This document shows, piece by piece, positions 470 to 28,216 of a stretch of DNA of 64,000 bases. The translations under genes and the position numbers were made by a program. The stretch covers positions 119,350,001 to 119,414,000 of the forward strand of contig NW_027362768.1 in NCBI RefSeq assembly GCF_046119375.1, given 5' to 3'. The notes below the pieces were generated by a model. It was not told where the DNA came from, did no database searches, and saw only the letters and a program-made list of their open reading frames with translations. Every line of letters begins with the position of its first letter. Position 1 is the first letter of the stretch. The DNA is from Phyllobates terribilis (Eukaryota).

Positions 470-1700
470 AGGTTCCACTACAGCCACATTCCCCACATTT
501 AAAAAAATTAGTGGCAGATGCCAGGAAAGTGGCAACAATTTCACTACTGTAGAAATAGTGTAAATAAGACCCACACCTCTTCCAGTACAGCCAACACAGG
601 AGATGGAGACCTAACCAGGGGTATTCACATTGCCCTAATTGAGGGCCTAACACCACCGAAGTGGCATCAATGTCATCAGACTACAAGTAGTTTAACGCAG
701 ACCCATACCTGTCCCACTACAGCCAACCCAGGAGATGCTGACTCAATCGGAAGTGTTTACATTTAAAAAAATAGGGCTTAAGACCACCATTTCAGTGGCC
801 AACATATTGGAGATGGTGGAGTTCAACCTCTTAGCTTTGTCATATGTAGGAAGAAACAATCTTTTATGTGACCACAACAGCGGGATTGAGGGCTGGCTGC
901 AGGGCTGAGAGAAGGCAGAGTACGGTGAAACGGACAAACCGATAGACCATGAGTGAGATGCAGGTGGAGATGTTACGGTGGATTGAGAAACGTGTGGTGT
1001 GCTCAGAGGAACAAACACAGCAGGCATGACCGCTTCACTTACAGCTGATGGGCTGTCACTCAACCTAACTGTAGCGGGTATACAGCTGGTTCTGTCGGAT
1101 ACCTGTGTGACACAACTTGGCACGGTAACAGAGGAGAGGAAGAAGCAGCAGATGTGTTTGATGGGGCGGCTGATGGTTGTTTATTGAAAATCAATTTAGA
1201 GTTTATCATGTTTGTGTACCCGTTTGGGGAGAATAATATCTGCACCAAATGCTCAATTTCAGTACAGTATAACTATAGAAATGCATGGAGACCAAAACCT
1301 CTTCCACTACAGTCAACCCAATGGATGGAGACCCATTCAGGATTCCCCACATTTCCAAAAATTAGCGGCAGACGCCAGCAAAGTGTAATCTATTTCACTC
1401 CAATAGAAATAGTGTAAATGAGACCCACATCTCTTCCAGTATAGACAACCCAAGAGATGGAGACAACCAGGAGTGTTCACATTGCCTTAAATAAGTGCCT
1501 AACAAACACCATCGAAGTGGCATTAATTTCACTAGAGTATAAGTATTGCAAAGGAGGCCAAAACCAGTTCCTCTACAGCCAACCCAATGGATGGAGACCC
1601 AACCATGATTCTCCACATTTCAAAAAATTAGTGGCAGACGCCAGCAATGTCTAATCAATTTCACTACAGTAGAAATAGTGTAAATGAGACCCAGTTAGAA
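470..1700. repeat. Degenerate dispersed/tandem repeat (3 related blocks near 470-760, 1290-1560, 1565-1700) surrounding a hAT fragment
   Basis: Recurrent motifs CCCCACATTT..AAAAATTAG(T/C)GGCAGA(T/C)GCCAG and AGAAATAGTGTAAAT(A/G)AGACCC. Confidence 0.65.
743..1190 (-). pseudogene. Short hAT transposase fragment
   Basis: Translation ..YDKAKRLNSTISNMLATEM matches HEKAKRLNFTICKLLATEM of the 13876-17556 transposase. Confidence 0.8.
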
Positions 1701-2254
1701 AATAGCAAAAGGCAATGGTACTCACCAGCCAAGGTTCCAAGAAAAATGCACACCAGGACATGGCCGGCCCCCTTTTGTTAGAAGGAGGTAACACAGGTGC
1801 AGAATGCTAATGAACAATCGCCCTCACCCACTCTCACTGGAGGGGCGGTTGCCTAGCACTAAAACTGCACACAGATGAAACTTGAAGTAGGGTGCAATTC
1901 ACACACTCGCGGCACCGTGCCTAGCCAGCATCCTATTACACGCCCCTACTATTCGACTAGGCAGGGTGTCTGGCACCCTATCCGTGCATCGCAGAGTTGC
2001 GAAGCCCCAACTCACAAGGTCACCATTACTGGGCCTGGCTGTGTCCTGGCAGATAAAAAAGTGCAAAAAATATCATATGAGGTATTAGTTAATATTTTGG
2101 CCAAAATACGTAAGCTCGCAAGACATCGTCAAGGGTCCTCACGGTTTTGCGAGTCCCTACTCTAACATTAAAAACAAACAGCATAGCCAGAACAATAAAC
2201 AGAATTTTTAAAAAATTCCAAAATCAATTAGAAAATAGCAAAAGGCAATGGTAC

Positions 2255-4861
2255 TCACTCCGCATCCTCCTCTTCTTCTGCGGCCACCACCTCCTGCCAC
2301 AGGTAATTCAAAGTTTGCTCCAGCATGTATATGACCGGAATAGTGATGCTGATGACAGCATCATCAGCGCTAACCAGTTTAGCAGCCATTTCAAAACTGT
2401 GCAGAAGGGTGCTGAGGTCCTTAATCAGTTCCCACTCCGCAAACATGATATGCCCCAAGTCCGTACTGCATTGCCCCAAGCTATACGTCATGACATACTG
2501 CGTCAGAGTTCGTTGCTGCTGGCACAGTCGCTGTAACATGTGCAGAGTGGAATTCCACCGCGGCGGCACATCACAGATCAACCTGTTAACTGGCACGGAC
2601 AAAGATCTCTGTATCGATGCAAGTCGATGACATGAGGGGTGCGAATGGCGGAAGTGACTTCCGTACTTTGTGAAGCAGCTCATCCAGGCCAGGATAGTGG
2701 CGGAGAAATCACTGTACCACCAGGTTGAAGACGTGAGCAATGCAAGGCACGTGTGCAATGTTGCCTCGGCCTAGGGCCGCTAACAGGTTTGCACCGTTAT
2801 CGCACACTGCCTTCCCTGGCTCTAGGTTCAGCGGAGACAGCCATTGCGAAAACTGAGCCTGGAGAGATGCCCACAACTCTTCACCTGTATGACTGCAATC
2901 TCCAAGGCATATTAATTTGAAGACTGCCTGATTACGGTGAGCCCTGACTGCACAGTACGGACGTGGTGTGTATTCCCTCCACACCCTTGGAATGCGTGTC
3001 TCGTTAAGGCAGAGGTTGAGTTTATCAGGTGGAGCATTCAGAAGCAGCAGAGGCAGTGGAAAATACCGAGGTTTCTTCTGCAAGCCTTGGAGATTACAAG
3101 ATTTGTGGAGCAGCTCCTTCCCTGCCTGCCCCCACAGCCACCAGAGTCACCCAGTGCCCAGACTGCGAGATGTAATGCCCTTGGTCACGCTTACTCATCC
3201 AGGTGTCTGTGGTGAAATGCACCCTGGCACACGTAGATTTAGACAAGGAATGGTTGATGTTGTCTAAGACATGCTGGTGTAGCGCAGGCACAGCTTTCTT
3301 AGAGAAGTAATGGCAACTGGGGGACTGCGACGGCCATCAGTTTTCGGAAACCATCTGTATCTGCCAGGCGGAAAGGCAGCATTTCCGTGGCCAACAGTTT
3401 GGAGATGGTGGAGTCCAGCCTCTTAGCTTTGTCATGCGTAGGATGAAACAATCTTTTACATGACCACAACTGCGGGACCGAGGGCTGGCTAAGGTGCTGA
3501 GAGAGGACAGAGTATGGTGAACCGGAAAAACTGGTGGCGCGTGAGTGAGGTGCAGATGTTACCGTGGATTGGGAAACATGCGGTGTGCTCGGTGAAACAA
3601 ACAGCAGGCGTGTCCACTTCCATTACAGCTGACGGGCTGTCACTCAGCCTGACTGGAGCGGGTAAAGAACCGGAGTTTCTGAGATGACCTGCATGATAAT
3701 ACTTGGCAGAGGAGGAGGAAGAAGCAGCGGATGTGTTTAATGGGGCAGCTGACGGTAATTGAGGTGCGCTGGTCCGCATTTCAACGCGGTAAGATTCCCA
3801 GCATAAAGAATGTTGTTTGAGCATGTGAACGTTCATGCATGTAGTAGTCAAATTAGTGCCGTTTTTCCCTCTACTAAGTTTTTTATTGCAAAGTTTGCAG
3901 ATAACGTGAGTTGGCTCATCCTTTGCAGTGACAAAAAAGGCCCATGCTAGGCAACCCTTGCTGCCCCTGCGAGTTGCAGACCTGTGACCGCTGCTGGCCA
4001 TAGCCACGGTTGTGGCTAAGGATGCAGTGCTCATCGTGCTTGCATCACTCCGTGTCTGCGCCGTAGGGTGAAATGTAACCTCCATGTCTTCCTCCTCCAC
4101 CTCCTCAGATGAGCTACTCGGTTGCGTGACTCTGGGTTCACACCAAGTAGGATCTTCAACCTCGTCATCATCCAATGTGTTATCCCACTCCTCGCCCTCA
4201 GAGTGACCCCTCTCCTCTTTTTGCTCTGACAGCACAGTACAGTCTGCATGAGCCTCAGGTATCTGAGTCTCATCGGGATCACCTCCCCTGCGGTTAACGT
4301 CTGGTGATGAGGGTCAGGAACCTGCTCGGACCCTACTTTATCCTGCCCCGAATCCAAGCTAAAAAAATGTTGGTCATCGGTGCAGATGCTTTCCTCCCCT
4401 TGACTCTGTGACTGTTTGGAGTACACTTCTGATGCCCATGGTGTAGAATGGGTGAAGAGTTCTACAGACTCGCCCATCTGTAGTTCGCTACTGTCACTTG
4501 GGCAGTTGGCCGGTTGTGACGCAGGGGAAAGCATGGGTAATTGGGGTGCCACCTTTGTGGACTGTACTGCATGTGATGTTGAGGTGGAGGAAGAAGAGGA
4601 GAGGCCACTGGAAGCAGAGCTTGCCATCCACTGTAGCACCTGCTCTTTCTTGGCCTTACCAACAAGGCGTATCACTGTGCAGCTGCCAAAGGAAGGGAGT
4701 GCAGTAGGCCAACCACAAACATAAGTTGTCAGTTATTTTTGAATAGGATCTGTTTGTGTTGGTTCACTAGTGCTTTTACTAACATTACCACATACCCCAC
4801 GTACACCTTGAACACCAAGCCTATTCCCCCTTCCACCACTCCCTCTCTTTTTCCCATTCAT
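2255..4861 (-). pseudogene. Frameshifted hAT transposase (BED zinc finger plus N-terminal part of DDE domain), 3' end missing
   Basis: Fragments: AWAFF..CKLC..KLSRG..TTTCMNVH (BED), HFTTDTW, VCDNGAN, CIAH, CDVPPRWNST; collinear with 13876-17556; inferred start MNGKK at about 4861. Confidence 0.9.
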
Positions 4862-8804: not shown

Positions 8805-9115
8805 TAGTGTTGAGCGAGTATGTTCTATTAACCCTTTCGCCGAGTATGCTCAGACCGAGCTCCGAGTATTTATAGCTGCTCGGTGATATGGTTGACTGGC
8901 TCCCGTGTGCATGATTTGCAACTGTTTGACAGTTTTATTACATGTGAGGAATGTGTAAGAAATAGACATTCCTCACATCTAATAAAACTGTCAAACAGTT
9001 TCAAATCATGCACACGGGAGCGATTCAACCATATCACCGAGCAGCTATAAATACTCGGAGCTCGGCCCGAGCATACTCGGCGAAAGGGTTAATAGAACAT
9101 ACTTGCTCAACACTA
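8805..9115. mobile_element. hAT-family hairpin MITE (311 bp, ~150-bp arms)
   Basis: TAGTGTTGAGCGAGTATG...CATACTTGCTCAACACTA; near-perfect palindrome; 8-bp TSD ATCAGCAC at 8797-8804 and 9116-9123. Confidence 0.92.
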
Positions 9116-9907
9116 ATCAGCACTAGTGTTGAGCGAGCACTAAAATGCTCGGGTGCTCGAAGCTCGGGCCGAGCTCACCGTGATACTTGGGTGCTCGACT
9201 CGAGCAACGAGCCCAATGTTAGTCTATGGGAGACCCGAGCATTTTTACGGCGGCAGCCCCGGCAGTATGTAGAAAGCCTAAAAAGTTCCCAAAGCGATAG
9301 TGACAGTGCTCAAATGACATGGGGACAGCATGGGGATCGCCCCAGGAAGCATTTCTGACCCCCAGGTCACTGCTGTCAACAACGTCCTCAGAGGTATTAA
9401 GTAGTGTTGAGCCACCCCCGTAGTGTTCGAGTTCGGTTCGGTTCGTCGAACACCCGTGTGTTCGCCGAACTGTTCGTCGAACTGTTCGTCGAACACCTTC
9501 GAACACCGTTAAAACCAATGGCAGGCAAACAAAAACACATAGAAACACATAGAAAACACCTTCAAAGGTGTCCAAAAGCTGACAAACTGCTCAGAAGACA
9601 TAACTAACACATGGAAAAGTGACAAGTACATATAGTCATGCGAAAATAAAAGAGGTGGAGGAGTAAAAGGAGGGGGAGACACAGATATAGGCATGTCATG
9701 CCCTTCTAAAATCCAAAAAGTGAGAAGCCGACACGGCCAGTCCGCTCCTGCCCGTGCCACCTCCGTGTCGCCGGGTTTGTGCCAGAGCCGCGGTGAACCC
9801 TGACGGCCAGCCCCCCTCTCCCAATACTGGTGCCTGTCCGCTGGTGGGTCGAGCGAGCCCCCCTGTGGTGGAGGCAGCTCTAAGCTTTTTAATTTAAATT
9901 GTCTCTC

Positions 9908-10180
9908 TAATTTGAATGAATACACTTTAAATCCATTTACAAGGATCTATTGGAGGGCAAGTCTCATGCCAGCAGCCGCGGTAATTCCAGCTCCAGTAGC
10001 GTCCACTAAAGCTGCTGCAGTTAAAAAGCTTTTATAAGGATCGAGCTCGGCTGTCCACCGCAAGGCATCCTACTGCCAGTCCCAGCCCCTATGCCTTGGG
10101 GTGCCTCCTGATGCTCTTCACTAAGTATCCCATGGTCCCGAAGCATTTCCTTTGAAAAAATTAAGTGTCTAAACTACAGG
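9908..10180 (+). pseudogene. Diverged 18S rRNA fragment (~270 bp, conserved 530-loop region into V4)
   Basis: GGAGGGCAAGTCT..TGCCAGCAGCCGCGGTAATTCCAGCTCCA.TAGCG...GCTGCAGTTAAAAAGCT and TTT.CTTTGAAAAAATTA match eukaryotic SSU rRNA; many substitutions. Confidence 0.9.
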
Positions 10181-10287
10181 TGGTGCAGCTTGCTCAACAG
10201 CCGGGATAATCCGCTTACTAGCAGACACTGCTACTAGGCACAAAGTATTTCCTGGGCTAGATGCAGTTAAAAATTTGTAATTAGATA

Positions 10288-12105
10288 CTCTCGTTGGATG
10301 CTGAGAAAGCATTCCATAGAGTCTCCTGGCACGCCATATATGATTCTCTTAAAAAGCTTGGGGTAGGGGTCTAGGGGACCCTTTTATAGCCAAAATCACG
10401 GCCCTGTATCGCAATACGTCACCTAGGCTGAAGATAAATGGAACTGTAGCACCCTGAGGGCTCGGTTGCTAAAGACGTATTGCACCTCACCCAGAGGTGT
10501 GATATCTCACTCTCAGGTAAGGATGGAGTGTGGATCAGGACCCGACACCTGCATGCATTACACCACATTGCCGTGGGGCAGGGCGACCAATATGCCCCTG
10601 AGATGGGCACGACAGTCCCTGTCCCTGGCTGGAGTGGGGGGAGGGAACACTGAGGAAGGGGAACCCTGTAGTGCAGGAGCAGGGAGGAAGCAGTTCCTGG
10701 GTGCATTGAGAAGGGAGTATAAAAGGTGGGCACCATCTTAGTTCAGTGCAGAGAAGTCTGAGCAGAAGTGGCAGGGAGCAGGGGCTCTGCATGAGCTCTG
10801 CTCCGGAGGCGGGCCTAGTAACAGAGGCCCAGGCCTGGAAGAGGGAGAAGGAAGGAAGAGGAGCGGAGAAGGCTCCAGGAACGAGGAATGAAGGGATCCC
10901 AGGGGTGCGGACGGGCGAGTCGCCACCGCACGCCCGAATCCACCTGCGTGGAGGGGTCAGGCCAAAGGGGGAGACCGGTCCCCGAACTAGTGGAGGCAGG
11001 AAACGACCCTCAGCTAGAAACCGGAGGCTCTGACATTTTATGTGGCGCAGCCCCTCGCTACACCCGCTAGGAAGGCACCACATAGGGTCAGGGAAACTGG
11101 CGCCAAGTTTACCAAGAGGAGGCCCGAGGCAGCCGGACAGAAGTGTTGGTAAGAAAGGCCAGACAAAGGACACACAAAGGGGGTCCTGTGAAGTGCTCCA
11201 AAGTTATCTGGAAGTTGTCTGAGCCCCTCACCTGGTGAGCACAGTACGACGTGGGCAGCCGTTACCTGCAGACGTGGTCTGGATAATAAGAACTGTGAGT
11301 AAAGGCCCTGAACTGCATCACTGACTCCGTGTCGTTACTGCTGCTGCCCTGCACCATCACCCCCATCCTCCGCATACACTGCCCTGAGGCTATACTCCTC
11401 CCGTGGGGAGTTATGCTACGCTCTGCTGCACCCACAACACCAGCCTCAGTGGTCTGCCCTGTAGCGGCGGTTCACTCTGACCGCAATCCACGGGTGGCGT
11501 AGTCGGACATTTAAACATGAAAACCACATAAATAGTTCCGCCACTGGTTTGACCGCCCTGAGCCACGGAACTGGGTCGCCGCCACGAAGACTACAACCAC
11601 CAGCATCCACCAAAAAGGGTCCGGCTCCGGGTGTCCCAAGGCCCAGGGGGTGCGTCAGAACATTTTCATCACCTTTCACAATCACCAATGGGACAAGGCA
11701 GTGATGTCCTCTGTCCCCTCTCTTATACATCCTAGTGACGGAGCACCTGCTCTCATCAATTCGCCATAACCCCAATATTAGGTGGATTGAGGTGGGAGGC
11801 ACCGAGTACAAGTGCTCTCTATTTGCTGATGATGTCCTAGTATATATCACTCAATCACATATATCCATCCATGCTGTTATGGCTGAAATAGATCACTTTG
11901 TTACATGGTAAAATTTTAAAATCAATGCAGCGAAGTCTGAGGCCCTCGATGTCTCCCTCCCCAAATCCATATAGGATTCCATCCAGTCCAACTTTCCCTT
12001 TGCCTGGCCCTCACAGGGTATCAAATACTTAGGAATTCCTATTCATAGAGACCTCTCCCATCTATGTTATCTTAATTTTGGGCCCTTTATTGAACAACTC
12101 CATAC
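10288..12105 (+). mobile_element. LINE-1-type ORF2 reverse transcriptase fragment, split by a solo LTR
   Basis: Joined translation LDAEKAF..VSW..ALY..RLKINGT|FSSPF.ITNGTRQ..PLS..SLFADDVL..KINAAKSE; disabled by frameshifts. Confidence 0.85.
10445..11657. mobile_element. Solo LTR (1213 bp), probably Gypsy-class
   Basis: TGTAGCACCC...GGGTGCGTCA termini (TG..CA, short imperfect inverted repeat); 4-bp TSD GAAC at 10441-10444 and 11658-11661; removal restores L1 RT continuity. Confidence 0.85.
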
Positions 12106-12179
12106 AGACCACGGTTGGCAAGTTAGAACTGTAAGATTCACTACGTGAACCACTGGTGTTTTGTGGAAAAGCACATGTA

Positions 12180-13520
12180 CACTGCGTTCCAAATTATTAT
12201 ACAAAAAGTGTTTAGGAGTGATAAGGGAAGAATTTGTTTGTCAGTTAAACTCATTGATGGTGATGTGTGTCAGGGCTCTTTATATCACTGTAAGCAATTG
12301 CAGACACCTGTGCTAATTAGTTTGGCAGGTGTGTCCAATGAAAGGCAAGACTACTTAAGAAGGCTCTCTCACATTATTAAGCAGCCTACATTTTCTGCCA
12401 AAATGGGAAAGAAAAAGGATGTGTCGGCTGCTGAGAAGCAACAAATTGTGGAGTGTTTAGGTCAAGGCATGACTACAATCAACATTGTGCGATGATCAGG
12501 ATGAAGTGTCCTGGCAATCAAGAAGTATGTAGCTGATTCACAGTACACACGTGTGCGTGCTGATAAGGGCAAATTGAGGACTCTTTCCTACAGGCAATTA
12601 CGTCAGGTTGAAAGAGCAGCGGCAAAAAAGCCTTGTCATAGCAGCAGACAAGTTTTTGAAGCTGCTTGTGCCTCCAACGTCCCCCGAACAACAAGATGCA
12701 GGGTCCTTCAGAGGTTTGCAGCTGTGCATGCGCCATCCTGTCGACCTCCTCTATCCACTTCACACAAGCAAAAACGGCTCCAGTGGGCCAAACATTACAT
12801 GAAGACTGATTTCAAAACTGTTTTGTTCACGGATGAGTGCCGTGCAGCGCTCGATGGTCCAGATGGATGGAGTGGAGGATGGCTGGTTGATGGACACCCC
12901 ACGCAAACACGGCTACAGCGCCAACAAGGAGGAGGTGGAGTAATGTTTTGGGCTGGAATCATGGGGAGAGAGATTGTCGGCCCCTTTAGGATCCCTGAAG
13001 GCGCTAAAGATGAACTCCATAATGTATGTGGATTTTCTCAAACAGCACTTCCTGCCATGGTTCAAGAAGAAGAACCGTGTATTTCACAGCAAGATCATTT
13101 TTCTGCATGATAATGCACCATCTCATGCTGCACATAAAACATCTGCATCTCTGGCTGATATGGGCATAAAAGGGGACAAACTTATGGTGTGACCCCCATG
13201 CTCCCCTGACCTCTACCCCATTCAGAACCTTTGGAGCATCATTAAAAGGAGTGTCTATGATGGCGGGAGGCAGTTCACATCTAAGCAACAGCTCTGGGAG
13301 GGTATTCTGTCCTCATGCAAAACAATTGAAGCAGAAACCATCCAAAACCTGACAAATTCAATGGACGAGAGAGTTCAGAAGCTCCTTTCGAACAAGGGGT
13401 CCTATGTGAAAATGTAACATCACCTAGAATAAAGTTTTGAGTTGAAAACTGTTTGATTTCAGTTTCTAACAACCTGCTAATGCTTATAATTTCAAAAATG
13501 ACCATTTTTTTGGTCTTTAT
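12180..13520 (+). mobile_element. Tc1-like element, right end truncated
   Basis: TA|CACTGCGTTCCAAATTATTAT left terminus; transposase remnants. Confidence 0.85.
12403..13415 (+). pseudogene. Tc1 transposase pseudogene
   Basis: MGKKKDVS.., FTDEC, GGGVMFWAGI, FLHDNAPSH, SPDLYPIQNLW (catalytic E replaced by Q); stops and frameshifts. Confidence 0.88.
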
Positions 13521-13875
13521 TAAAATGAAAAGGTTGATCGAAAAGTTTGGGGGATCTAAGAGTGTGGCAACCCAGTAGTCATGATTACTTCGAATTCTGA
13601 CAATATGAGGGTCATGCTGCAGGTAGTGCAGCAAGAAGGCACTTATGTGCCTTGCGCATCTCGGAGCCCCAAAATTATTTTCCGGGCTAGATGCAGCTAA
13701 AAATTATTTTTAATTTTAAATCTGGTGAAGCTTTAGTATAGATGGCCTAATAGGATCAGTGCTGCACACTGCTACAAAGCCCAAATTATTTTCCAGTCAA
13801 GATACAGATAAACATGATTAGTAATTTGAAAGCTTAAAACGGTTGGTTGGGTGATTTTAACCAATCATCAAGCTT

Positions 13876-16800
13876 TTACTCTCCCCAGGATGACACAGGG
13901 GTAGAAAAGTCGTTTCGGATCCATGATTTGTTCATCTTTATGAACGTGAGTCTGTCTACATTATCAGTGGAGAGCCGCGTGCGCTTATCTGTCAGCACAC
14001 CACCAGCAGCGCTGAACACACGTTCAGACAGAACGCTGGCTGCGGGGCATGACAAGATCTCCAAGGCGTAAGTGGCTAGCTCCGGCCATTTATCCAGATT
14101 GGAAGCCCAAAAAGAGCAAGGGTCCAGTGACACAGTCGTGGCTTCAATGTTTACTTGGAGATACTCCTGTACCATCGTCTCTAGGCGTTGACTATGTGTC
14201 AGACTTCTTGTCTCCTGTGGCCTTGCAAAGGATGGGCTAAAAAAGTGGTGAAATGATTCCGCAAAATTGATGTTACCAGCAGATACTGTGGTTCTGTTAC
14301 GGTTTGAGTGCTGAAAACTTGACGGTCCCACGGTTGGCAAGTTGGAACTGTGAGATTCACTACGTGCACCACTGGTATTTTGTGGAAAAGCACATGTAAG
14401 ATTCTGCAACAGTCTCTGCTGATACTCCTGCATGCGTGCATCCCTTTCTATGGCAGGAATAATTTCTGCAAATTTACTTTTGTACCGGGGATCTAACAGT
14501 GTGGCAACCCAGTAGTCAGGATTATTTCTAATTCTCACAATTCGAGGGTCATGTTGCAGGTAGTGCAGCAAGAAGGCACTCATGTGTGTTGCGCATCCAG
14601 GAGCACCAAGTCCCTGTTGTGTTGGTGGCGAGGTAACAATCATGCTTCCTTCCTCTGTCCTCTCCCCCCAACCTCGCACAACAGAAATGTGATCAAGGTC
14701 TCCCTCATCTGATGAGTCTTCCATCAGTTCGTCCTCCACTTCTTCCTGGGCTCCTGCACCTTCCTCACTAGTTTGGCTGCTACCATGCGCCCTGGTAAAA
14801 CCATCTCCCCCACCCTCACATGCCTGCCGCCTTGGTGCTGCCGACCGTCTGGACCTTGCAGATGTTAGCCCTTGCGCATACAACTCCTCCTCCTCTACTT
14901 CCTCCACCTCCTCTTGTGCCACCACCTGACTCCGAATTCTGTTTAACATGTGCTCCAGCATGTAAATCACCGGAATAGTCATGCTGATAATGGCATCGTC
15001 AGCACTAAACATCTTCGTCGCCATTTCAAAACTGTGCAGAAGGGTGCATAGGTCCCTGATCTGAGACCACTCCTCCAGCGTGATTTGCCCCACCTCTGAA
15101 TCTCGTTGGCCCAGGCTATACGTCAGAACGTATTGCACCAGGGCTTGTCGGTGCTGCCACAGTCGCTGCAACATGTGCAGAGTTGAATTCCACCGGGTAG
15201 GCACATCGCATTTTAGCGGGTGAAGTGGCAGGCCCAACGACTTCTGTAGAGATGTAAGTCGCTGAGCTGCGGGATGCGAACGGCGGAAGTGAGCACACAG
15301 CGACCGTGCCCTCTGCAGAAGGCCATCTAGTCTGGGATAGTGGGCTAAAAATTGCTGGACAACCAGGTTCAACACGTGAGCCATACAAGGCACGTGTGTG
15401 ACATTGCCCCGGCGAAGGGCCGCACCCAGGTTTGCAGCATTGTCGCACACGGCCTTCCCTGGTTTCAGGTCCAGTGGAGACAACCATTCATGAAATTGGT
15501 TCTCCAGAGCTGACCACAACTCCTCAGCTGTGTGACTCACATTTCCCAGACATTTCAATGTAAAAACCGCCTGATGACGTTGAGCCCTACTGCCAGCATA
15601 GTAAGGAGGTGTGCAGGATCCCTTCTGCGCAGTTAGAAAGCTTGTGGCATGACCAGACAGGCTTTGGGTGCAGGTGGAAGACCGAGAGGAGGTTGAGGAG
15701 GCAGAAGCAGTGGAGGAACTTTGACATAAAGAGGATTGACGCACAACTCGTGGGGACGGCAAGACTTGGACAGCAGCCCCTTGTCCTGCTGTCACCATAG
15801 TTACCCAGTGCCCAGTCAGCGACATGTAACGCCCCTGTCCATGCCTACTCGTCCAAGTGTCTGTGGTGAAATGCACCCTGTCACACACAGAGTTTCTCAA
15901 AGAAGCGGTGATGTTGTGTGCGACATGCTGGTGGAGCGCAGGCACACCTTTCTTTGAGAAGTAGTGCCGACTGGGCATCTGGTACTGGGGCACTGCGACG
16001 GACATAAAGTCTCGAAAATCCTCTGTGTCCACCAGGCGGAAAGGCAGCATTTCTGTAGCCAAGAGCTTGCAGATGGTGAAATTCAACCTCTTAGCTTTCT
16101 CATGGCTAGGAGGAAATGGTCTTTTACTTGTCCACATCTGAGGGACCGAGGGCTGGCTATTGTGCTTAGACGGGGTTGATAAGGGTGTCCCCGGCAAACT
16201 GCCGGTCTGTGAGGAAAATGCAGGCGGACATGTTAGGTTGCCTTGATCCAAAGGTGGTGCTATCGATGTCGGACAGCGCTCAACACCAGCTGGTGTTACC
16301 ACATCCAAAGAAAATGATGACCTGCCAATCACGCTGGCTGTTGCGGGTAAAGAGGTGGCAGGTCTGCGCCCCAAAACAGGTGTGACTGCTGTCCCCCCAG
16401 TCACAGAGGATGAAGAGGCCGCGGATGCACAAGATATGGCAGACGGTGATTGGAACGGCCGGCTAGGCCGCATTGTAGCACACTGAGCTTCCCACTGCAA
16501 CTTATGCTTCATGTCCATGTGCCGGTTCATGCATGAAGTACTCAAACTATGTATTTTTTGGCCTCTACTTAGCTTTTGCTGACAAATGTTACAGATAACA
16601 CGAGTTGGGTCATCTTTATCGATCTGAAAAAATGCCCAGGCTATGCAAGGCTTAGCACCCATGCGACCTGAAGAGCCACCACGACTTGTGGTGAGAGGCA
16701 GAGTTGTGTTTGAGGATGCAGTTGTTGACGTGCTTCCAGTACTACGTCTCTGTCCAGGAAGGCGCAACCTGACCTCGTCGTCACTAGCATCTTCCTCCAC

Positions 16801-17556
16801 CTCCTCTGCTGACCTCATCTCTTGGCTGACTGTGGGTTGACAGTAAGTGGGATCTCCGACCTCATCATCATCACCCTGTGCGTTATCACACCCGTTGTCC
16901 TCAGAGCCAACCTGTTCCTGCCCTGACAAAAAAATAAAGTTGTCGCTCCAATCAGGTATTTGAGTCTTATCATCGTCTTCCTCATTGTCTCCACCAACAG
17001 GAGTTACAGTTTGGGAATGAGGGTCTACATTATGGTCAGAACCTTCTGCGTCTGGTCCTGGATCCGACTCATAAAGATTCTGGGCATCAGTGCAGATCAT
17101 TTCCTCGTCTGGATTCACAGAAGCGCTGGAGTCGACCTCTGATTCCCAGGCTATAGTATGAGTAAACAGCTCTGCAGACTCAACCATCTGTTCTACCTCA
17201 CACTCAGACGGGCAGCTGGAGATTTGGGAGCTGTGAGGAAGCAAGTGCGATTTGGGTGACACCTTTGAGGACTGGAGTATTTGTGATGTTGAAGTTGATG
17301 TGGAGGAGAGCCCACTTAAAGGAGCACTTGATATCCGTTGAAGCACCTGCTGTTTTTGTGCCTCATCTGGAATTTGTAGCGATTGGCGTGGCCGTAAGAA
17401 AGGGATCTTATCACATTGTCCGCTAAAAGAAGTAGACATTTTAGTTTGGCTGGAAGATGGTCTTTCTTCTGCACCTACCCCACGGACACAACCTTTTTTC
17501 CCCTTCCCAACACGCCTATTCCCCTTTCCACCAGCAGCAGGCCTTTTTCCACTCAT
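13876..17556 (-). CDS. hAT-superfamily transposase, 1226 aa, BED zinc finger + DDE + C-terminal hAT dimerisation domain
   Basis: AWAFF..CNIC..KLSRG..CMNRHMDMKH (BED); FTTDTW (D1), VCDNAAN (D2), CMAH, CDVPTRWNST, LLDPRYK, WPEL..LSCPAASVLSERVFSAAG (E); no internal stop. Confidence 0.93.
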   Translation of the reverse strand: MSGKRPAAGGKGNRRVGKGKKGCVRGVGAEERPSSSQTKMSTSFSGQCDKIPFLRPRQSLQIPDEAQKQQVLQRISSAPLSGLSSTSTSTSQILQSSKVSPKSHLLPHSSQISSCPSECEVEQMVESAELFTHTIAWESEVDSSASVNPDEEMICTDAQNLYESDPGPDAEGSDHNVDPHSQTVTPVGGDNEEDDDKTQIPDWSDNFIFLSGQEQVGSEDNGCDNAQGDDDEVGDPTYCQPTVSQEMRSAEEVEEDASDDEVRLRLPGQRRSTGSTSTTASSNTTLPLTTSRGGSSGRMGAKPCIAWAFFQIDKDDPTRVICNICQQKLSRGQKIHSLSTSCMNRHMDMKHKLQWEAQCATMRPSRPFQSPSAISCASAASSSSVTGGTAVTPVLGRRPATSLPATASVIGRSSFSLDVVTPAGVERCPTSIAPPLDQGNLTCPPAFSSQTGSLPGTPLSTPSKHNSQPSVPQMWTSKRPFPPSHEKAKRLNFTICKLLATEMLPFRLVDTEDFRDFMSVAVPQYQMPSRHYFSKKGVPALHQHVAHNITASLRNSVCDRVHFTTDTWTSRHGQGRYMSLTGHWVTMVTAGQGAAVQVLPSPRVVRQSSLCQSSSTASASSTSSRSSTCTQSLSGHATSFLTAQKGSCTPPYYAGSRAQRHQAVFTLKCLGNVSHTAEELWSALENQFHEWLSPLDLKPGKAVCDNAANLGAALRRGNVTHVPCMAHVLNLVVQQFLAHYPRLDGLLQRARSLCAHFRRSHPAAQRLTSLQKSLGLPLHPLKCDVPTRWNSTLHMLQRLWQHRQALVQYVLTYSLGQRDSEVGQITLEEWSQIRDLCTLLHSFEMATKMFSADDAIISMTIPVIYMLEHMLNRIRSQVVAQEEVEEVEEEELYAQGLTSARSRRSAAPRRQACEGGGDGFTRAHGSSQTSEEGAGAQEEVEDELMEDSSDEGDLDHISVVRGWGERTEEGSMIVTSPPTQQGLGAPGCATHMSAFLLHYLQHDPRIVRIRNNPDYWVATLLDPRYKSKFAEIIPAIERDARMQEYQQRLLQNLTCAFPQNTSGARSESHSSNLPTVGPSSFQHSNRNRTTVSAGNINFAESFHHFFSPSFARPQETRSLTHSQRLETMVQEYLQVNIEATTVSLDPCSFWASNLDKWPELATYALEILSCPAASVLSERVFSAAGGVLTDKRTRLSTDNVDRLTFIKMNKSWIRNDFSTPVSSWGE

Positions 17557-17689
17557 TTTGGTGGTTAACTAATTCACAACTCTGGAGTTGTTTGCACAAA
17601 AAAACAATGGATGGTAACCGAGCAGAGCTGAGTGGCCAAACTGTGGTATTAGGCCAAAACTATTGGCTGGGTTAGATGCAGAAAAAAAA

Positions 17690-19170
17690 TATTTTTAATT
17701 TGCAACCTGATGGAGGTCAGTATAGATGGACTAATAGACCAAGTCCCACACACCGCTACAAGCCCAAATATTTTTTCAGAGCTAGATGCAGAAATTTTTT
17801 TTATTCAATTTGCAACCTGATGGAGGTCAGTATAGATGGACTAATAGACCAAGTCCCACACACTGCTAGAAGCCCAAATATTTTTTCAGAGCTAGATGCA
17901 GAAAAAAATTATTTTTAATTTGCAACCTGATGGAGGTCAGTATAGATGGACTAATAGACCAAGTCCCACACACTGCTAGAAGCCCAAATATTTTTTCAGA
18001 GCTAGATGCAGAAAAAAATTATTTTTAATTTGCAACCTGATGGAGGTCAGTATAGATGGACTAATAGAACAAGTCCCACACGCTGCTAGAAGCCCAAATA
18101 TTTTTTCAGAGATAAATGAAGAAAAAAATTATTTTTAATTTGCAACCTGATGGAGGTCAGTATAGATGGACTAATAGACCAAGTCCCACACACTGCTAGA
18201 AGCCCAAATATTTTTTCAGAGCTAGATGCAGAAAAAAATTATTTTTAATTTGCAACCTGATGGAGGTCAGTATAGATGGACTAATAGACCAAGTCCCACA
18301 CACTGCTAGAAGCCCAAATATTTTTTCAGAGCTAGATGCAGAAAAAAATTAGTTTTAATTTGCAACCTGATGGAGGTCAGTATAGATGGACTAATAGACC
18401 AAGTCCCACACACCGCTAGAAGCCCAAATATTTTTTCAGAGCTAGATGCAGAAAAAAATTATTTTTAATTTGCAACCTGATGGAGGTCAGTATAGATGAA
18501 CTAATAGACCAAGTCCCACACACTGCTAGAAGCCCAAATATTTTTTCAGAGCTAGATGCAGAAAAAAATTATTTTTAATTTGCAACCTGATGGAGGTCAG
18601 TATAGATGGACTAATAGACCAAGTCCCACACACTGCTAGAAGCCCAAATATTTTTTCAGAGCTAGATGCAGAAAAAAATTATTTTTAATTTGCAACCTGA
18701 TGGAGGTCAGTATAGATGGACTAATAGACCAAGTCCCACACACCGCTAGAAGCCCAAATATTTTTTCAGAGCTAGATGCAGAAAAAAATTATTTTTAATT
18801 TGCAACCTGATGTAGGTCAGTATAGATGGACTAATAGACCAAGTCCCACACACTGCTAGAAGCCCAAATATTTTTTCAGAGCTAGATGCAGAAAAAAATT
18901 ATTTTTAATTTGCAACCTGATGGAGGTCAGTATAGATGGACTAATAGACCAAGTCCCACACACTGCTAGAAGCCCAAATATTTTTTCAGAGGTAGATGCA
19001 GAAAAAAATTATTTTTAATTTGCAACCTGATGGAGGTCAGTATAGATGGACTAATAGACCAAGTCCCACACACCGCGCTAGAAGCCCAAATATTTTTTCA
19101 GAGCTAGATGCAGAAAAAAATTATATTCAGTTTGCAACCTGATGGAGGTCAGTATAGATGGACTAATAGA
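17690..19170. repeat. Tandem array, 14 x 110 bp, immediately upstream of the transposase ATG
   Basis: TGCAACCTGA at 17701, 17811, 17921 ... 19021, 19133; units nearly identical. Confidence 0.95.
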
Positions 19171-21644
19171 ATGATGCTATGCCCAAAAGATTTTACTTCA
19201 CTAGGTGCAGTAAAAAAATTGGTATTCTATACACAGGTGTTATATCTTGCAACACAGATAGGCTACTCCACTGACTAACACACTCTGCAATAGGCCAAAA
19301 AGGATTAGCTTTGCTAGATTCAGCCAAATGCTGTGAAAAAAACTTGCACAGCACTGGCACAGACCTGCCTGGCAAAAACTGATAGGAACTCATGTAACCT
19401 AGTCCTGAAAAGGACTCCAATTACAATTAGTCTTTACTCCCACAACCTATCTATTTAAGAGCACAGACCTCCCTGATAAAAGTCGTAGGAAATGCTGCAA
19501 CCTAGTCCTTAAAAGGACTGCAATCACAACTATTCCCTACTCCCAAGCTATCTGTATATTTGTGCGAAAATTGGCTTGAAATTAACAAGGTATAGCACAC
19601 ACAGCAACAGCGGTGCCGTCTAACACGCAGCTGCAGCAGTGAGAAAATGGTGGCGACGGGGAAAATGGCTTGGTCTTATAGGGCAAGGACATGTGACATA
19701 CACTGCCAATCACACATGCCCTTGCTTGTGTGAAAAAAAGCACTTCGCTCCGTGTGTGCGCTGCTGATAGGCTGACAGATTGCACCTCCCCACTGCAAAT
19801 GCGGGAAAGAGAAAAAAAAATGGAGATCTTCATTGTTCCTGCAGAGATCCATCCCCTGCCCCTCCCCCCGCCCCGCTGTACACTCAAACTGCGTATTAAC
19901 ATTAATTTTCATCATTACTGAGAAAAAATCCAGTTATGATTTTGGTGCACGAACAGTTATCGAACATAACCTCGAACAGCCGAATTTTTCTCAAATTGTT
20001 CGTGTTCGCCGACCGGCTCGAACACCGCCCAAAACAGCTCGAATTTGAGATTGGCGAACAGTTCGAGTAGAACAACGCTCATCTCTAGTATTAAGCCACT
20101 TTTACGGGCTCACAATAAAATGTTCAAAAATGAAACTGAAACACTTGTGTATAAGGTAAAATAAATAACCAAAAACAAAAGTACTCCTCCACACCTTGGG
20201 CTATGTTCACAAGTAGCATTTTTTATGCGTTTTTGCACTTTTGTATTGCTTTCAACTGTGACAAATGCATTCACCGGGAAATGTCATTTTAACATTTTAC
20301 AACCTTACCTGGTCATGTGCTGTGTGACACATGCATACAGTGCTGAAAAGACATGGGAACAGCATGGGGAAGACCCCTGGAAGCATCTCTGACACCCAGG
20401 TCACTGCCTAAAAGTGTGCCCATCAGAAGTGATCCTTGCCGCATCAGAAAATGCAGATTTGCAACTATCCCCGTGCAAGTCCTTGTCCCAGGGCAGTGTT
20501 CAATTGTACCTCCTCGATTCCTTGCAATGCAAGCGCAAGTATGCAGCCTGCCACCCACCCACCCCCAGGCTGCAATACCATACTGCTTGTTTGCTTGCAC
20601 TTGAAATTGGGCCTTTTAGGCATGTGGAGGCGGAATCTGGCCACCACGTCATGGCTGCGTCGGCGGCCTGGTATCCATACTCAGTCCCCAGCTGCCCGGC
20701 GGCCGGGTGTCCACGCTTGGTCCCCAGCCGCCAGGGGGCGGCCGGATGTCCATAAACGGTCCCCAGCCGCCCCTATTTGAAGGACAGCCTAACCACAAAC
20801 ACGTGAACAAGTGAATGTGGCCAGGGATGGTCCATCTCACTGACGCCTTCACACTGGGTTAATATTGTGGAAGCCGGGACACAGTTGGACACTGGGATGC
20901 AACACGTCCTCCAGACATAGAGGATTGCAGTTCCTGGGTCAATCAGGCTTCAACACAAAGTTCAGAAGGTAGACAGCAGCAGTGGTCGGCCACCTACACA
21001 ACGAGTAAATTATTCATGATCATAGGGCCATCCATCTCCTTAGCTTTCTGTTCCTTGGAATGCAAGCGCATGTATGTAGTAGTGGCTAGGCCTGAGGTGG
21101 TCAGCATTTTGGCGCATATCCTACCTCCTCCGAGGATTGCTGGATGTTTTCCTGCTACTATCCCAGTTCTATGACTCCCGTTAAAACAAAGCTTCAGGTG
21201 ATGAATGATGGATGAGGTGGTGGCAAAGGAGAAAGAGCAGGAGGAACAGGGACCATTCACATCAATATCTGGCCAGTCAACCACACATGTCTTGTAGGAT
21301 ATGTTTCTGTACCAAAAGGAGCGGTTTGGCTACACAGTTATAGGGCATACAGTGAGTGCAATGCCTACCAAAAATTTCGAGGCACTCCAATGCCCATTGG
21401 AAGTGACATGGAGTTCAGTGGGCCTTAACTAAACCGTTTTTTCCATTTATAGCAACTGGGTCTCCTGTACACTGTTGGCCTAAGCAGTGAATGGAAGGCT
21501 TTCCAAAAATTATGAGGAACTGCAATGCCCCTTGAAAGAGATGTGGATTACAGCGTACTAAAAACCTTCTACCCATTATTGGGGAGTGGGTCTCACTTAG
21601 TGTTGGCCTATGCATTGAAAAGCAAAAGCTGACTAAAATTAGGA

Positions 21645-24863: not shown

Positions 24864-25617
24864 TTATGTTACTCTGCTGTCATTTGGTGGTGATGAGAAG
24901 TCTGGCCCAATCCAGCCCTTGTTCATTTTGATAATGGTCAGCTTGTCAGCATTGTCAGTTGATAGGCAAGTGCGCTTATCAGTTATAATTCCCCCAGCGG
25001 CACTAAAAACACACTCCGATAACACGCTAGCGGCAGGGCAGGCCAGGACCTCCAAGGCGTACAGAGCGAGTTCATTCCAAGTGTCCAGCTTGGATACCCA
25101 ATAATTAAAAGGCACAGAGAAATCACGGAGGACGCTGGTACGGTCGGCAAGGTACTCCCTCACCATCTTTTGAAACTTTCCACTCCTTGTAAGAGTACCC
25201 CGCGCCTCAGGGCCTGTAAGCTGGGCGGGTCTCAGAAAACTGTCCCAGAACGTTGACAGTTTTCCCCTGCCTCTGCTGGATTGGAGTTGCGTCTCTCTCG
25301 CCTGTACGCCTTGGTTGGTCAACGAACTGTGATCTCTGCTGCCAGCATGTTCAGATGGGAAGTTTTACAACAGTTCTGCAGCAAGGGCCTTCTGTTACTG
25401 CCCCATTTTTGTAGACCTCTCCACCTCAGGAATAAGAGAGTTAAAGTTCTCCTTGTAGCGGGGGTCTAAAAGTTTCACCAACCAGTAATGACTGTCACCC
25501 AACATTTTGATAACGCGAGGGTCACGGTTAAGGCAGCGTAACATAAAGTCAGCCATGTGTGCCAGACTGGTAATGGGCAAGACTTCCGTGTCCTCACCAA
25601 GATGAGGAATAACCATG

Positions 25618-25648
<31 letters not shown>

Positions 25649-28216
25649 TGTCTTCAGGCCACCCACGCTGAACCGACGGTATGACAGTTGTACAGGTACT
25701 ACCGTCTACAGCGCATGATATTAGCTTCTGTTCTTCCTCCTCCTCCTCTCCCTCATTGTTCCCCAATGCACGTTGGGATGAGATGAGGCTGCGCTGTGTG
25801 TAATCGCCCGCTACGGCTTCTTGATCCATCTCATCATACTCTGGCTGCAATGCAACCTCTTTAATTCTTTGCAGAGAGCATTGCAAAAGACAGACAAGTG
25901 GGATGCTGACGCTAATGACAGCATCATCGCCACTCACCATCTTGGTGGACTCCTCAAAGTTTGTCAGGATGGTACATATGTCAGACATCCAGGTCCACTC
26001 CGGAGGTCTTATGTGTGGAGTCTGACCTGAATATCGACAGCCTTGCTGCAGCTGGTACTCCACAACTGCTCTCTTCTGCTCACAAATCCTTTGCAACATG
26101 TGGAGCGTAGAGTTCCAATGTGTGGGGACATCACACACCAGTCAGTGTGCCGGAAGCTGCAAACGCTGCTGCAACACAGCTAGGGCGGAGGAAGCTGTAG
26201 CCAACTTCCAAAAATGAGCTGACAGGCGGCGTACTTTGACGAGCAGATCTGGCAACTCGGGGGACGATTTAAGAAGCCGCTAAACCACAAGGTTAAGCAC
26301 ATGAGCAGGCATGGTACGTGTGTGATCTCGCCTCGCCTCAGAGCCTCCACGAGGTTACGGCCATTGTCACACACGACCATGCCTGGATGTAGGTTCAGCG
26401 GTCTCAGCCACACATCTTCCTGCTCTTTCACAGCTGTCCACAACTCACAAGCAGTGTGAGGTTTATCACCTAAGCTTATGAGTTTCAGCACAGCCTGTTG
26501 CCGCTTGGCTGAGGCAGTACTGCAGTGATTCCAGCTTGTAACTGATGTGGTGATATCTGAAATGGAGGCTGAACATGAGGAGGAGGAGGATGATGCGCAG
26601 GAGCTGTACACTGTGGGGGCATCTCTCACTGACATAGGGCCCGCAATCCTCGGTGTGGGGAGGATGTGTTCCATCCCAAGGTCCGACTGGGTCCCGGCTT
26701 CCACTATGTTTACCCAGTGTGCCGTCAGGGAGATGTACCATCCCTGGCCACAAGCACTTGTCCACGTGTCCGTTGTCAGGTGGACTCTCCCAGTAACTGC
26801 GTTGTTGAGGGCACGGCAGATGTTTTGGGACACGTACTTGAGTAGTGCGGGGATGGCACACCGGGCAAAATAGTGTCGGCTGGGGACCCAGTACCGAGGG
26901 ACGGCCACCGCCATAAGCTTGCGGAAGGATTCCATCTCCACCAGCCTAAAGGGAAGCATTTCCAAAGCAAGCAGTCATGAAATGTGCAAATTTAGGACTG
27001 TGGCCTGTGGGGCATTGGATGCGAATTTGCGCTTTCATTCAAAGCTCTGGGATATGGACAATTGAACGCTGCGGTGGGACGTGGATGTGGATGTTGATGC
27101 TGTTTCTTGAGAAACTGCCATAACAAGTGAAGACTGAGAGGAGGGGGCATCTTTGTATGCAGTATGGACAGGGGATAGCCTTGCACGCACAACAGGGGGT
27201 TCTCTTACACGCACAACAGCGGAAGAAGCAGTGGTGACACCCACTGACACTGGTCGTGGACCCTGGGGTTTGCCCCACAAAGTCGGGTGCTTTGCTGCCA
27301 TGTGCCTGATTATGCCGGTGGTGGTCAGGCTGGTAGTTTTGTCACCCCTGCTGATGCTGGCCTGGCAGGTGGTACAAATGGCCTTTTTGGGATTATCAGC
27401 AGAGTCTTTAAAAAAATTCCAGACTCTTGAAGACCTACCGGTTGTACTGGCAACGTCCCTCGTGTTGGTGTTACGGGTAGCGTTTGCAAGCCTTCTGTCT
27501 TTGGCCACCACACTGCTTCTTCCTGCCTGTTGGGGTACTCTGCCTCCCTCCCCCTGTGTGCTGCTTGCCTCGCTCTTTGTGTCCTCCTGCCACATTGGGT
27601 CAGTTACTAGATCATCCACCACCTCCTCATCTTCCACTTCTGCACCACGGTCCTCCTCCTCACTTCGTGGCAATTGTGTCTCATCATCATCCACCTCTTG
27701 TGACAAATTGCCAGCGTCGACTTCCTGTGGCCGTGGCTGTTCAAATATTTGGCCATCGCTAAATGGGATCTCCTCTTCCACCACTTCAAGCGGAGCAGGC
27801 GAGGGGCACAAATATGGAAATGGACCAGTGAACAGCTCTTCAGAGTGTCCAAGTGTGGGATCAGTTGCTGTCTGACGACACTCGGCATGGTGGGAGGAAG
27901 GAGCATCAGGGTGAGGAGGAGTATGCAGTCGAGACACACGGCTACTAACACTTGACCGTGTGGAAGACAGACCGGAGGTGGTGGTGCCCAGGTGACTGGA
28001 AGTATTATCTGCTATCCAATTAATAACCTGTTCACACTGATCAGTTCGCAATAGTGGTGCTGTTGTGTGCTTCCCTAGTAATTCGGTCAAGAACTGGGAG
28101 CGAGAAGACGTGGCAGTTGGTTGTGGCACATTTTCACCTTGGCCACGGCCCCATCCTTTGCACGCACCATCACCAGAACGTCCAGTTCCACGTCCCTTGC
28201 CACGCGTCTTGCCCAT
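24864..28216 (-). pseudogene. Full-length but frameshifted hAT transposase of the outer element
   Basis: ORF pieces 27035-28216 (BED: VWNFF..CTTC..RHMAAKH), 26180-26965 (LTTDTW, VCDNG), 25395-26138 (CDVPTHWNST, LLDPRYK), 24864-25322 (ACPAASVLSECVFSAAGG). Confidence 0.92.

Follow-up and report, generated by a model that had tools for sequence, protein, structure and literature searches.

How can a transposase gene remain intact when the DNA beside it, inside the same transposon, is dead? This question is raised by a 64,000-nucleotide stretch of the Phyllobates terribilis genome (NCBI RefSeq assembly GCF_046119375.1, contig NW_027362768.1, positions 119,350,001 to 119,414,000 of the forward strand; hereafter the window, whose own numbering is used throughout), in which a hAT transposon of 10,686 bp (9402-20087) combines an undisabled transposase open reading frame (ORF) with an array of defunct passengers. 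A preliminary description of the locus had reported, in the ~4 kb downstream of the stop codon, a substituted piece of 18S ribosomal DNA (rDNA), a frameshifted L1 reverse transcriptase (RT), a solo long terminal repeat (LTR) and a dead, truncated Tc1, all of which proved real. It had offered two ways out: either the passengers were already inside a mobilizing master copy, or the ORF was kept intact by selection or gene conversion. Our analysis makes it very probable that the locus represents a young copy of an Ac-family hAT that is very abundant and has a full-length transposase, an 11-kb unit whose source copies gathered rDNA, L1, Tc1 and the LTR in succession as neutral passengers. The intact ORF beside dead cargo is then no longer a paradox, because the dead cargo would have been inherited from selected master copies.

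This reading is carried by the joints between the passengers, which the preliminary description had proposed to look for at other loci with different target site duplications (TSDs). Exact word matches throughout the 10.57-Gb assembly (reversed-pattern controls all gave 0; mutated copies are missed by exact words) numbered 61,200 for the junction between the external transcribed spacer (ETS) and 18S pieces, 45,989 for the Tc1 junction and 38,026 for the LTR junction, with 4,165 for the empty site of the LTR, 88,177 for the terminal 18-mer of the left end and 73,405 for a 21-mer of the ORF. A set of 71 sequences was stitched from 50 fetched loci, 20 loci sampled by position (entries 1-10 and 26-35 of the junction list for contig C1) and the window. 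Both ends and a TSD were present in 35 of them, and all 35 TSDs are different (31 perfect, four with one mismatch); one of these end pairs belongs to a non-autonomous sister element, and the other sequences are truncated, nested or longer than the fetched span. The passengers were thus already in a mobilizing master copy, as the first of the two suggestions had it.

Layout of the element and its transposase

The element, with the pieces that it carries, is arranged as follows.

9394-9401, plus strand: left copy of the 8-bp TSD (GTATTAAG)
9402-9718, minus strand: hAT end downstream of the ORF, an 11-bp terminal inverted repeat (TIR) and subterminal region; terminal 18-mer with 88,177 exact genome matches
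9719-9885, plus strand: rDNA piece that by its position is 5'ETS (~570-410 bp upstream of 18S), with 82.7% identity to the host's rDNA; its counterpart in the oldest subfamily is longer
9903-10173, plus strand: 18S rRNA piece covering ~nt 559-838 of the gene; identity to the 18S of the same genome is 85.4%, against 89-91% for the oldest subfamily
10174-10286, plus strand: single 113-bp unit, akin to the internal repeat of the element itself; older subfamilies have it in tandem
10287-10444, plus strand: left part of an L1-type RT fragment, with a frameshift common to older subfamilies; ends in GAAC, the TSD of the LTR
10445-11657, plus strand: solo LTR (TG...CA), 1,213 bp, 4-bp TSD GAAC, inside the L1 fragment; junction 38,026 matches, empty site 4,165
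11658-12108, plus strand: second GAAC, then the right part of the L1 RT fragment, with 3 stops
12109-12179, minus strand: stray copy of ORF bases 14328-14398 (94%), target of the Tc1
12178-13537, plus strand: Tc1-type transposon at TA, with TGA at 13190 and 222 bp of its right end gone; junction 45,989 matches
13550-13672, minus strand: stray copy of ORF bases 14487-14609 (89%)
13665-13834, plus strand: the 110-bp internal repeat, ~1.5 units in degenerate form
13876-17556, minus strand: intact, intronless hAT transposase, 1,226 amino acids (aa), with BED finger, D566/D705/E1178, CxxH and dimerization domain
17653-19171, plus strand: tandem array of ~14 units of 110 bp, upstream of the ORF; array length differs among copies
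19172-20087, minus strand: hAT end upstream of the ORF, TIR at 20077-20087
20088-20095, plus strand: right copy of the 8-bp TSD (GTATTAAG)

The single TSD that the preliminary description saw bounding 10.7 kb was recovered at both ends of the unit and has no further plus-strand occurrence in the window. The 11-bp TIRs are imperfect (TAGTGTTGAGC / GCTCATCTCTA), and their starts, TAGTG and TAGAG, fit the hAT/Ac-family pattern YARNG, which the accessible text of PMC3014272 gives as the start of short hAT TIRs. Of the 35 TSDs, 30 have T as their second base and 34 have A as their seventh, in agreement with nTnnnnAn, the Ac-family consensus according to the part of PMC8961557 consulted. The flanking stretches 9303-9373 and 20337-20407 are 87% alike, so that the hAT inserted into a repeat.

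The ORF, likewise described beforehand as undisabled over 3.7 kb, reads from its ATG through 1,226 aa without a stop, and every motif named for it was located: its protein has zf-BED and Dimer_Tnp_hAT domains, and motifs place the zinc finger at C322/C325/H346/H351 and the remaining residues at D566, D705, CxxH 724-727 and E1178. The best match among solved structures is Hermes (E 2.7e-19), with the second D, the CxxH and the E falling inside the alignment and the first D placed by motif alone. The nearest proteins are frog or anuran 'ZBED4/6-like' sequences at 33-49% identity, and no close relative appeared among 48 matches (7,980 candidates scored), whose top identities were 44-49%. With Hermes and these anuran sequences the transposase shares BED finger, DDE residues, CxxH, dimerization domain and the Ac-type nTnnnnAn target; it differs from Hermes in being about twice as long (1,226 against 612 aa), with low-complexity inserts, and in the 110-bp upstream array and the 4 kb of downstream cargo. 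TSD, TIRs, domains and similarity searches together assign the predicted transposase and its element to the Ac family of the hAT superfamily.

Relatives of the element occur elsewhere in the window. Two older, broken hATs lie at 746-4555 (~45-66% protein identity, in pieces) and 24888-27421 (40-45%), and short elements with related TAGTG(T/A)TGAGC ends are found at 8805-9115, 9124, 29169, 32316 and 38571, one of them a 153-bp near-perfect hairpin. From 58816 onward (L151:817-6478) there is a sister element of 5.66 kb, a non-autonomous relative that shares the ends (~92%), has the TSD GTACTAAT and shows no similarity to the transposase.

Copies, subfamilies and the order of cargo gain

Outside the window, copies are collinear with it from end to end at 97-99% identity, and similarity ceases at the TIRs. 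Of 29 other loci found by the end of the ORF, 28 continue collinearly through the Tc1; in the position-sampled set, 18 of 20 copies span no less than 90% of 9402-17600 and 3 of 20 retain an ORF of 1,226 aa or longer. Even passenger patterns designed to exclude the hAT flank still led to hAT-borne copies at 13 of 20 (Tc1) and 11 of 20 (LTR) loci. At a median of 10.9 kb per element, taken from 29 copies, the 38,026 LTR junctions correspond to 3.9% of the assembly, and the 61,200 rDNA junctions by the same arithmetic to ~6%, from which we estimate that the family makes up ~4-6% of the genome's DNA. Among 20 ORF matches without a listed LTR junction, nine nevertheless had LTR-bearing cargo and five belonged to a side lineage (E, below). 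Nested or joined copies of the same family are frequent (L065, L137, L207, L225/L226, L215/L216).

The copies fall into classes that differ by what they carry. Class A has rDNA and an RT scrap (weak RVT_1 match, E 0.001) and is free of L1, Tc1 and LTR; class B, the single copy L131, is of the A type with L1 added; class C adds the Tc1, and class D the LTR. L133, B and side lineage E have a piece of tyrosine recombinase (PF00589) that C and D lack; this piece and the RT scrap we take to be DIRS-like. A rooted ORF tree of 24 copies, with the 68%-identical older hAT at 746-4555 of the window as outgroup, places A as a basal grade, followed by L133 with E, then B, C and D, with 100% bootstrap on those four nodes and terminal branches that become shorter from A to D. 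On this tree the cargo was acquired in the order rDNA (with DIRS-like scraps that were later lost), L1, Tc1, LTR, and within D the window copy is a tip like any other. Lineage E (L248, L250, L258, L265 and L266; 5 of 20 sampled ORF matches) has an inverted copy of the upstream array downstream of its ORF, together with DIRS-like recombinase cargo, and is likely non-autonomous, because all five copies share a stop at codon 1040. The joint without the LTR also occurs in contigs of another organism (X17), and the form with the LTR in a DNA run (X9, organism B). A look-up of RNA data sets listed none with the element. Read checks, which had no reads for the rDNA part of the element, included two runs not used as evidence: RNA run X21 of organism B placed one of its 12.7 million reads on the stretch, the DNA run X9 of the same sample covering 30 of 30 bins, and run X15 covered 30 of 30 bins, its RNA nature being only guessed.

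Each piece of cargo has its own history. The ETS-position and 18S pieces, 83-91% like this genome's rDNA, are captured host sequence outside the transposable elements (TEs), with an identifiable parent, as expected of a Pack-TIR; identity of the 18S piece to the host declines from 89-91% in A through 87-89% in B and C to 85% in D, and the rDNA breakpoints are old and were subsequently deleted into. The label 'Pack-type hAT' of the preliminary description is apt for the rDNA but otherwise loose, because the full transposase is kept and most of the cargo consists of transposon remains, rDNA being the sole host sequence. A non-exhaustive search of the fetched loci recovered no ancestor that has this ORF but lacks rDNA. 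The TTAA at 9927-9930 in the 18S piece is a site at which L181 and L060 carry different TTAA-flanked insertions.

The L1 RT piece (RVT_1, E 2.7e-14) is one fragment split in two by the solo LTR. LTR elements 65-75% like that of the cargo have inserted repeatedly, at different sites, in L207, L212, L254, L256, L259, L265 and L266. The Tc1 lies within a stray segment copied from the hAT ORF; it contains a stop as well as indels, and the young subfamily has further indels. That the hAT might have amplified an intact Tc1 transposase was considered and rejected: the frames of subfamily C (321-339 residues from stop to stop) run into a TGA before the last catalytic motif. This TGA is present in all four readable Tc1 copies of subfamily C (of seven), whereas four free relatives have TGG, and the Tc1 was therefore already dead. 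The free relatives found (L162, L166, L167, L175) are derivatives with internal deletions and inverted duplications, at 93-95% similarity to the Tc1 of the cargo.

How such an assemblage may have come about can be outlined as a sequence of steps. The transposase would need only the two ends, so that whatever lies between stop codon and end would be copied along; the LTR and the Tc1 may have entered by ordinary nested insertion, as the TSD and empty sites of the one and the TA target of the other suggest, and rDNA and L1 by template switching or by truncated insertion followed by deletion. Each new wave would have been founded by copies with a working ORF, with the cargo free to decay. The cargo was likely gathered one piece at a time and likely only rides along.

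Selection on the transposase and competing explanations

A comparison of ORF and passenger divergence, also proposed beforehand, bears directly on the earlier statement that the passengers are far more decayed than the ORF. Measured against the passengers' own sources this is correct; within the family it is not, since cargo and ORF are equally young. Private divergence in subfamily D (26 copies) amounts to 0.39% for the ORF, 0.38% for the Tc1, 0.53% for L1 and 0.56% for 18S. Cargo and ORF thus differ equally from the D majority state (0.4-0.6%), and decay has therefore not taken place at this locus. Majority states were taken from 6 A, 6 C and 26 D copies, omitting L127, L137 and L139 (nested young copies) and copies without a group.

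Between subfamilies the picture changes. Private ORF changes comprise 350 synonymous and 931 non-synonymous ones, including 54 stops, with a ratio of non-synonymous to synonymous rates (omega) of ~1, which is neutral-like; changes between subfamily majorities comprise 72 and 104, respectively, with omega 0.36-0.60 (Fisher p=0.0004 against private changes). On the C to D branch alone, the ORF has 22 synonymous and 26 non-synonymous changes (p=0.007), and the Tc1 7 and 22 together with fixed frameshifts. This shows that the ORF is under purifying selection between subfamilies while the Tc1 gathers frameshifts. Full-length ORFs are intact in 9 of 27 D, 0 of 6 C and 0 of 2 A copies; with 9 of 27 young ORFs intact and constraint at p=0.0004, the element would qualify by its sequence as an autonomous transposon. 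The earlier suggestion of selection or gene conversion acting on the ORF is thus borne out for selection between subfamilies but not at this locus, where neither local selection nor gene conversion is needed: of 27 young ORFs of full length no more than 9 are intact, as under neutral decay.

Several points weigh against the view that neutral cargo accumulated in a selected master lineage. Taken by itself, the C to D branch gives no significant contrast between Tc1 and hAT ORF (p=0.09), constraint is moderate given that omega between subfamilies is only 0.36-0.60, and the selection estimates depend on majority states of small groups (A, C). Subfamily B is one copy, and group A is a grade whose majority carries one stop; lineages have recombined with each other, as in L250, which combines E cargo with a D-like ORF. 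Copies were sampled from one contig end (C1), and the exact-word counts could include assembly duplicates.

Of the competing explanations, insertion and decay of the passengers at this very locus, with the ORF preserved by domestication or gene conversion, could appeal to the ORF being intact here and to frog relatives annotated as ZBED4/6-like genes; it is nevertheless hardly credible and is rejected by the junction counts, as the joints are common to tens of thousands of loci, the window copy is unexceptional among D copies, intact ORFs recur both in that subfamily and in the position-sampled set, and private changes have an omega near 1. A domesticated ZBED gene in particular was rejected, with 73,405 ORF matches, TIRs and TSDs and neutral-like private change speaking for a transposon. 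We consider it just as implausible that the two ends stem from independent insertions with a chance 8-bp match, or that copies were spread by segmental duplication. Nested and rearranged copies are indeed common in the family, but this possibility was discarded on account of copies that remain collinear at 97-99% up to the TIRs, where similarity stops, each with its own TSD.

Cargo inherited from master copies might, however, be partly helpful, with LTR and Tc1 supplying termination or promoter signals, or with sheer length spoiling deletion derivatives. This would account for the LTR-bearing subfamily outnumbering the earlier one (38,026 LTR junctions against 4,165 empty sites); in addition, copies with this type of end seem to be mostly long and loaded, since rDNA junctions amount to 69% of the left-end count (61,200/88,177), and AATAAA occurs on the ORF strand within the Tc1 and L1 pieces (13521, 12091). 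Yet exact words under-count older subfamilies, any passenger that happens to be linked can be swept along in a later burst, cargo has turned over in that the DIRS-like pieces were lost, and cargo changes between subfamilies by 1.3-8.5%, around or above the ORF synonymous rate of 2-3% (C to D). Helpful cargo in this general sense is thus quite improbable. A bolder proposal, namely that one cargo-laden full-length lineage added ~0.5 Gb to a frog genome in recent bursts and owes its success to the Tc1 and solo LTR, through new 3' processing of transcripts or a shield from silencing, with loaded 11-kb copies outcompeting short derivatives, strikes us as unlikely; if true, tens of thousands of apparent 'LTR', 'Tc1', 'L1' and 'rRNA' annotations in such genomes would be hitchhikers of one hAT.

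Precedents and significance

The preferred reading, a master lineage amplifying neutral passengers, has a precedent in hobo_AC of Anolis carolinensis, described in the available text of Novick et al. (2010, PMC3014272) as an autonomous hAT of 9-15 kb with TE fragments, which has 290 autonomous copies and multiplies its passengers. As described there, hobo_AC, like the frog element, is a swollen, young, autonomous hAT whose lineages differ by internal gain and loss, with amplified passengers and inter-element recombination. In contrast to its 290 autonomous copies, there are at least 38,000-61,000 junction matches here. Moreover, its authors favoured, in that text, capture of genomic blocks over insertion, whereas the LTR and Tc1 of the frog element point to true nested insertion, the former by its own TSD and by a subfamily with the empty site, the latter by its position at a TA. 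The same text as available mentions no rDNA cargo; the frog hAT is likened to hobo_AC by published description and not by homology of families.

A second comparison is with multicopy Pack-TIRs, of which the portion of Tan et al. (2021, PMC8277862) consulted gives four cases with a median cargo of 224 bp, among them Pack-hAT-N8_XT of Xenopus tropicalis, also a frog hAT, in which captured host sequence within a TIR element was re-transposed with distinct TSDs. Judging from that portion, such elements have few copies and short non-TE cargo; here the transposase is kept, and ~4 kb of cargo is mostly TE debris, only the rDNA coming from the host. For poison-frog genomes, hAT totals of 3.9% (PMC11152451) and 255 Mb (PMC6278860) are given in the accessible sections of two papers, which contain no such composite hAT. 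Literature searches returned no description of this family or of an rDNA-carrying hAT, an existing Repbase or Dfam consensus entry still being possible. The behaviour has a precedent in hobo_AC; new are its scale, the presence of rDNA among the cargo and a ladder of accretion that can be read step by step.

For the genome of P. terribilis this means that one DNA-transposon family accounts for an estimated 4-6% of the assembly, in a group in which changes in genome size are credited largely to retrotransposons (PMC12822217, in the part available). Repeat counts based on fragments would score its passengers as young bursts of LTR, Tc1, L1 and rRNA sequences. The family also provides a clean natural record of how the master lineages of a cut-and-paste transposon evolve, in which sequence under selection and sequence free of it share the same branches. 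If active, it would be a vertebrate hAT that routinely moves 10-13 kb.

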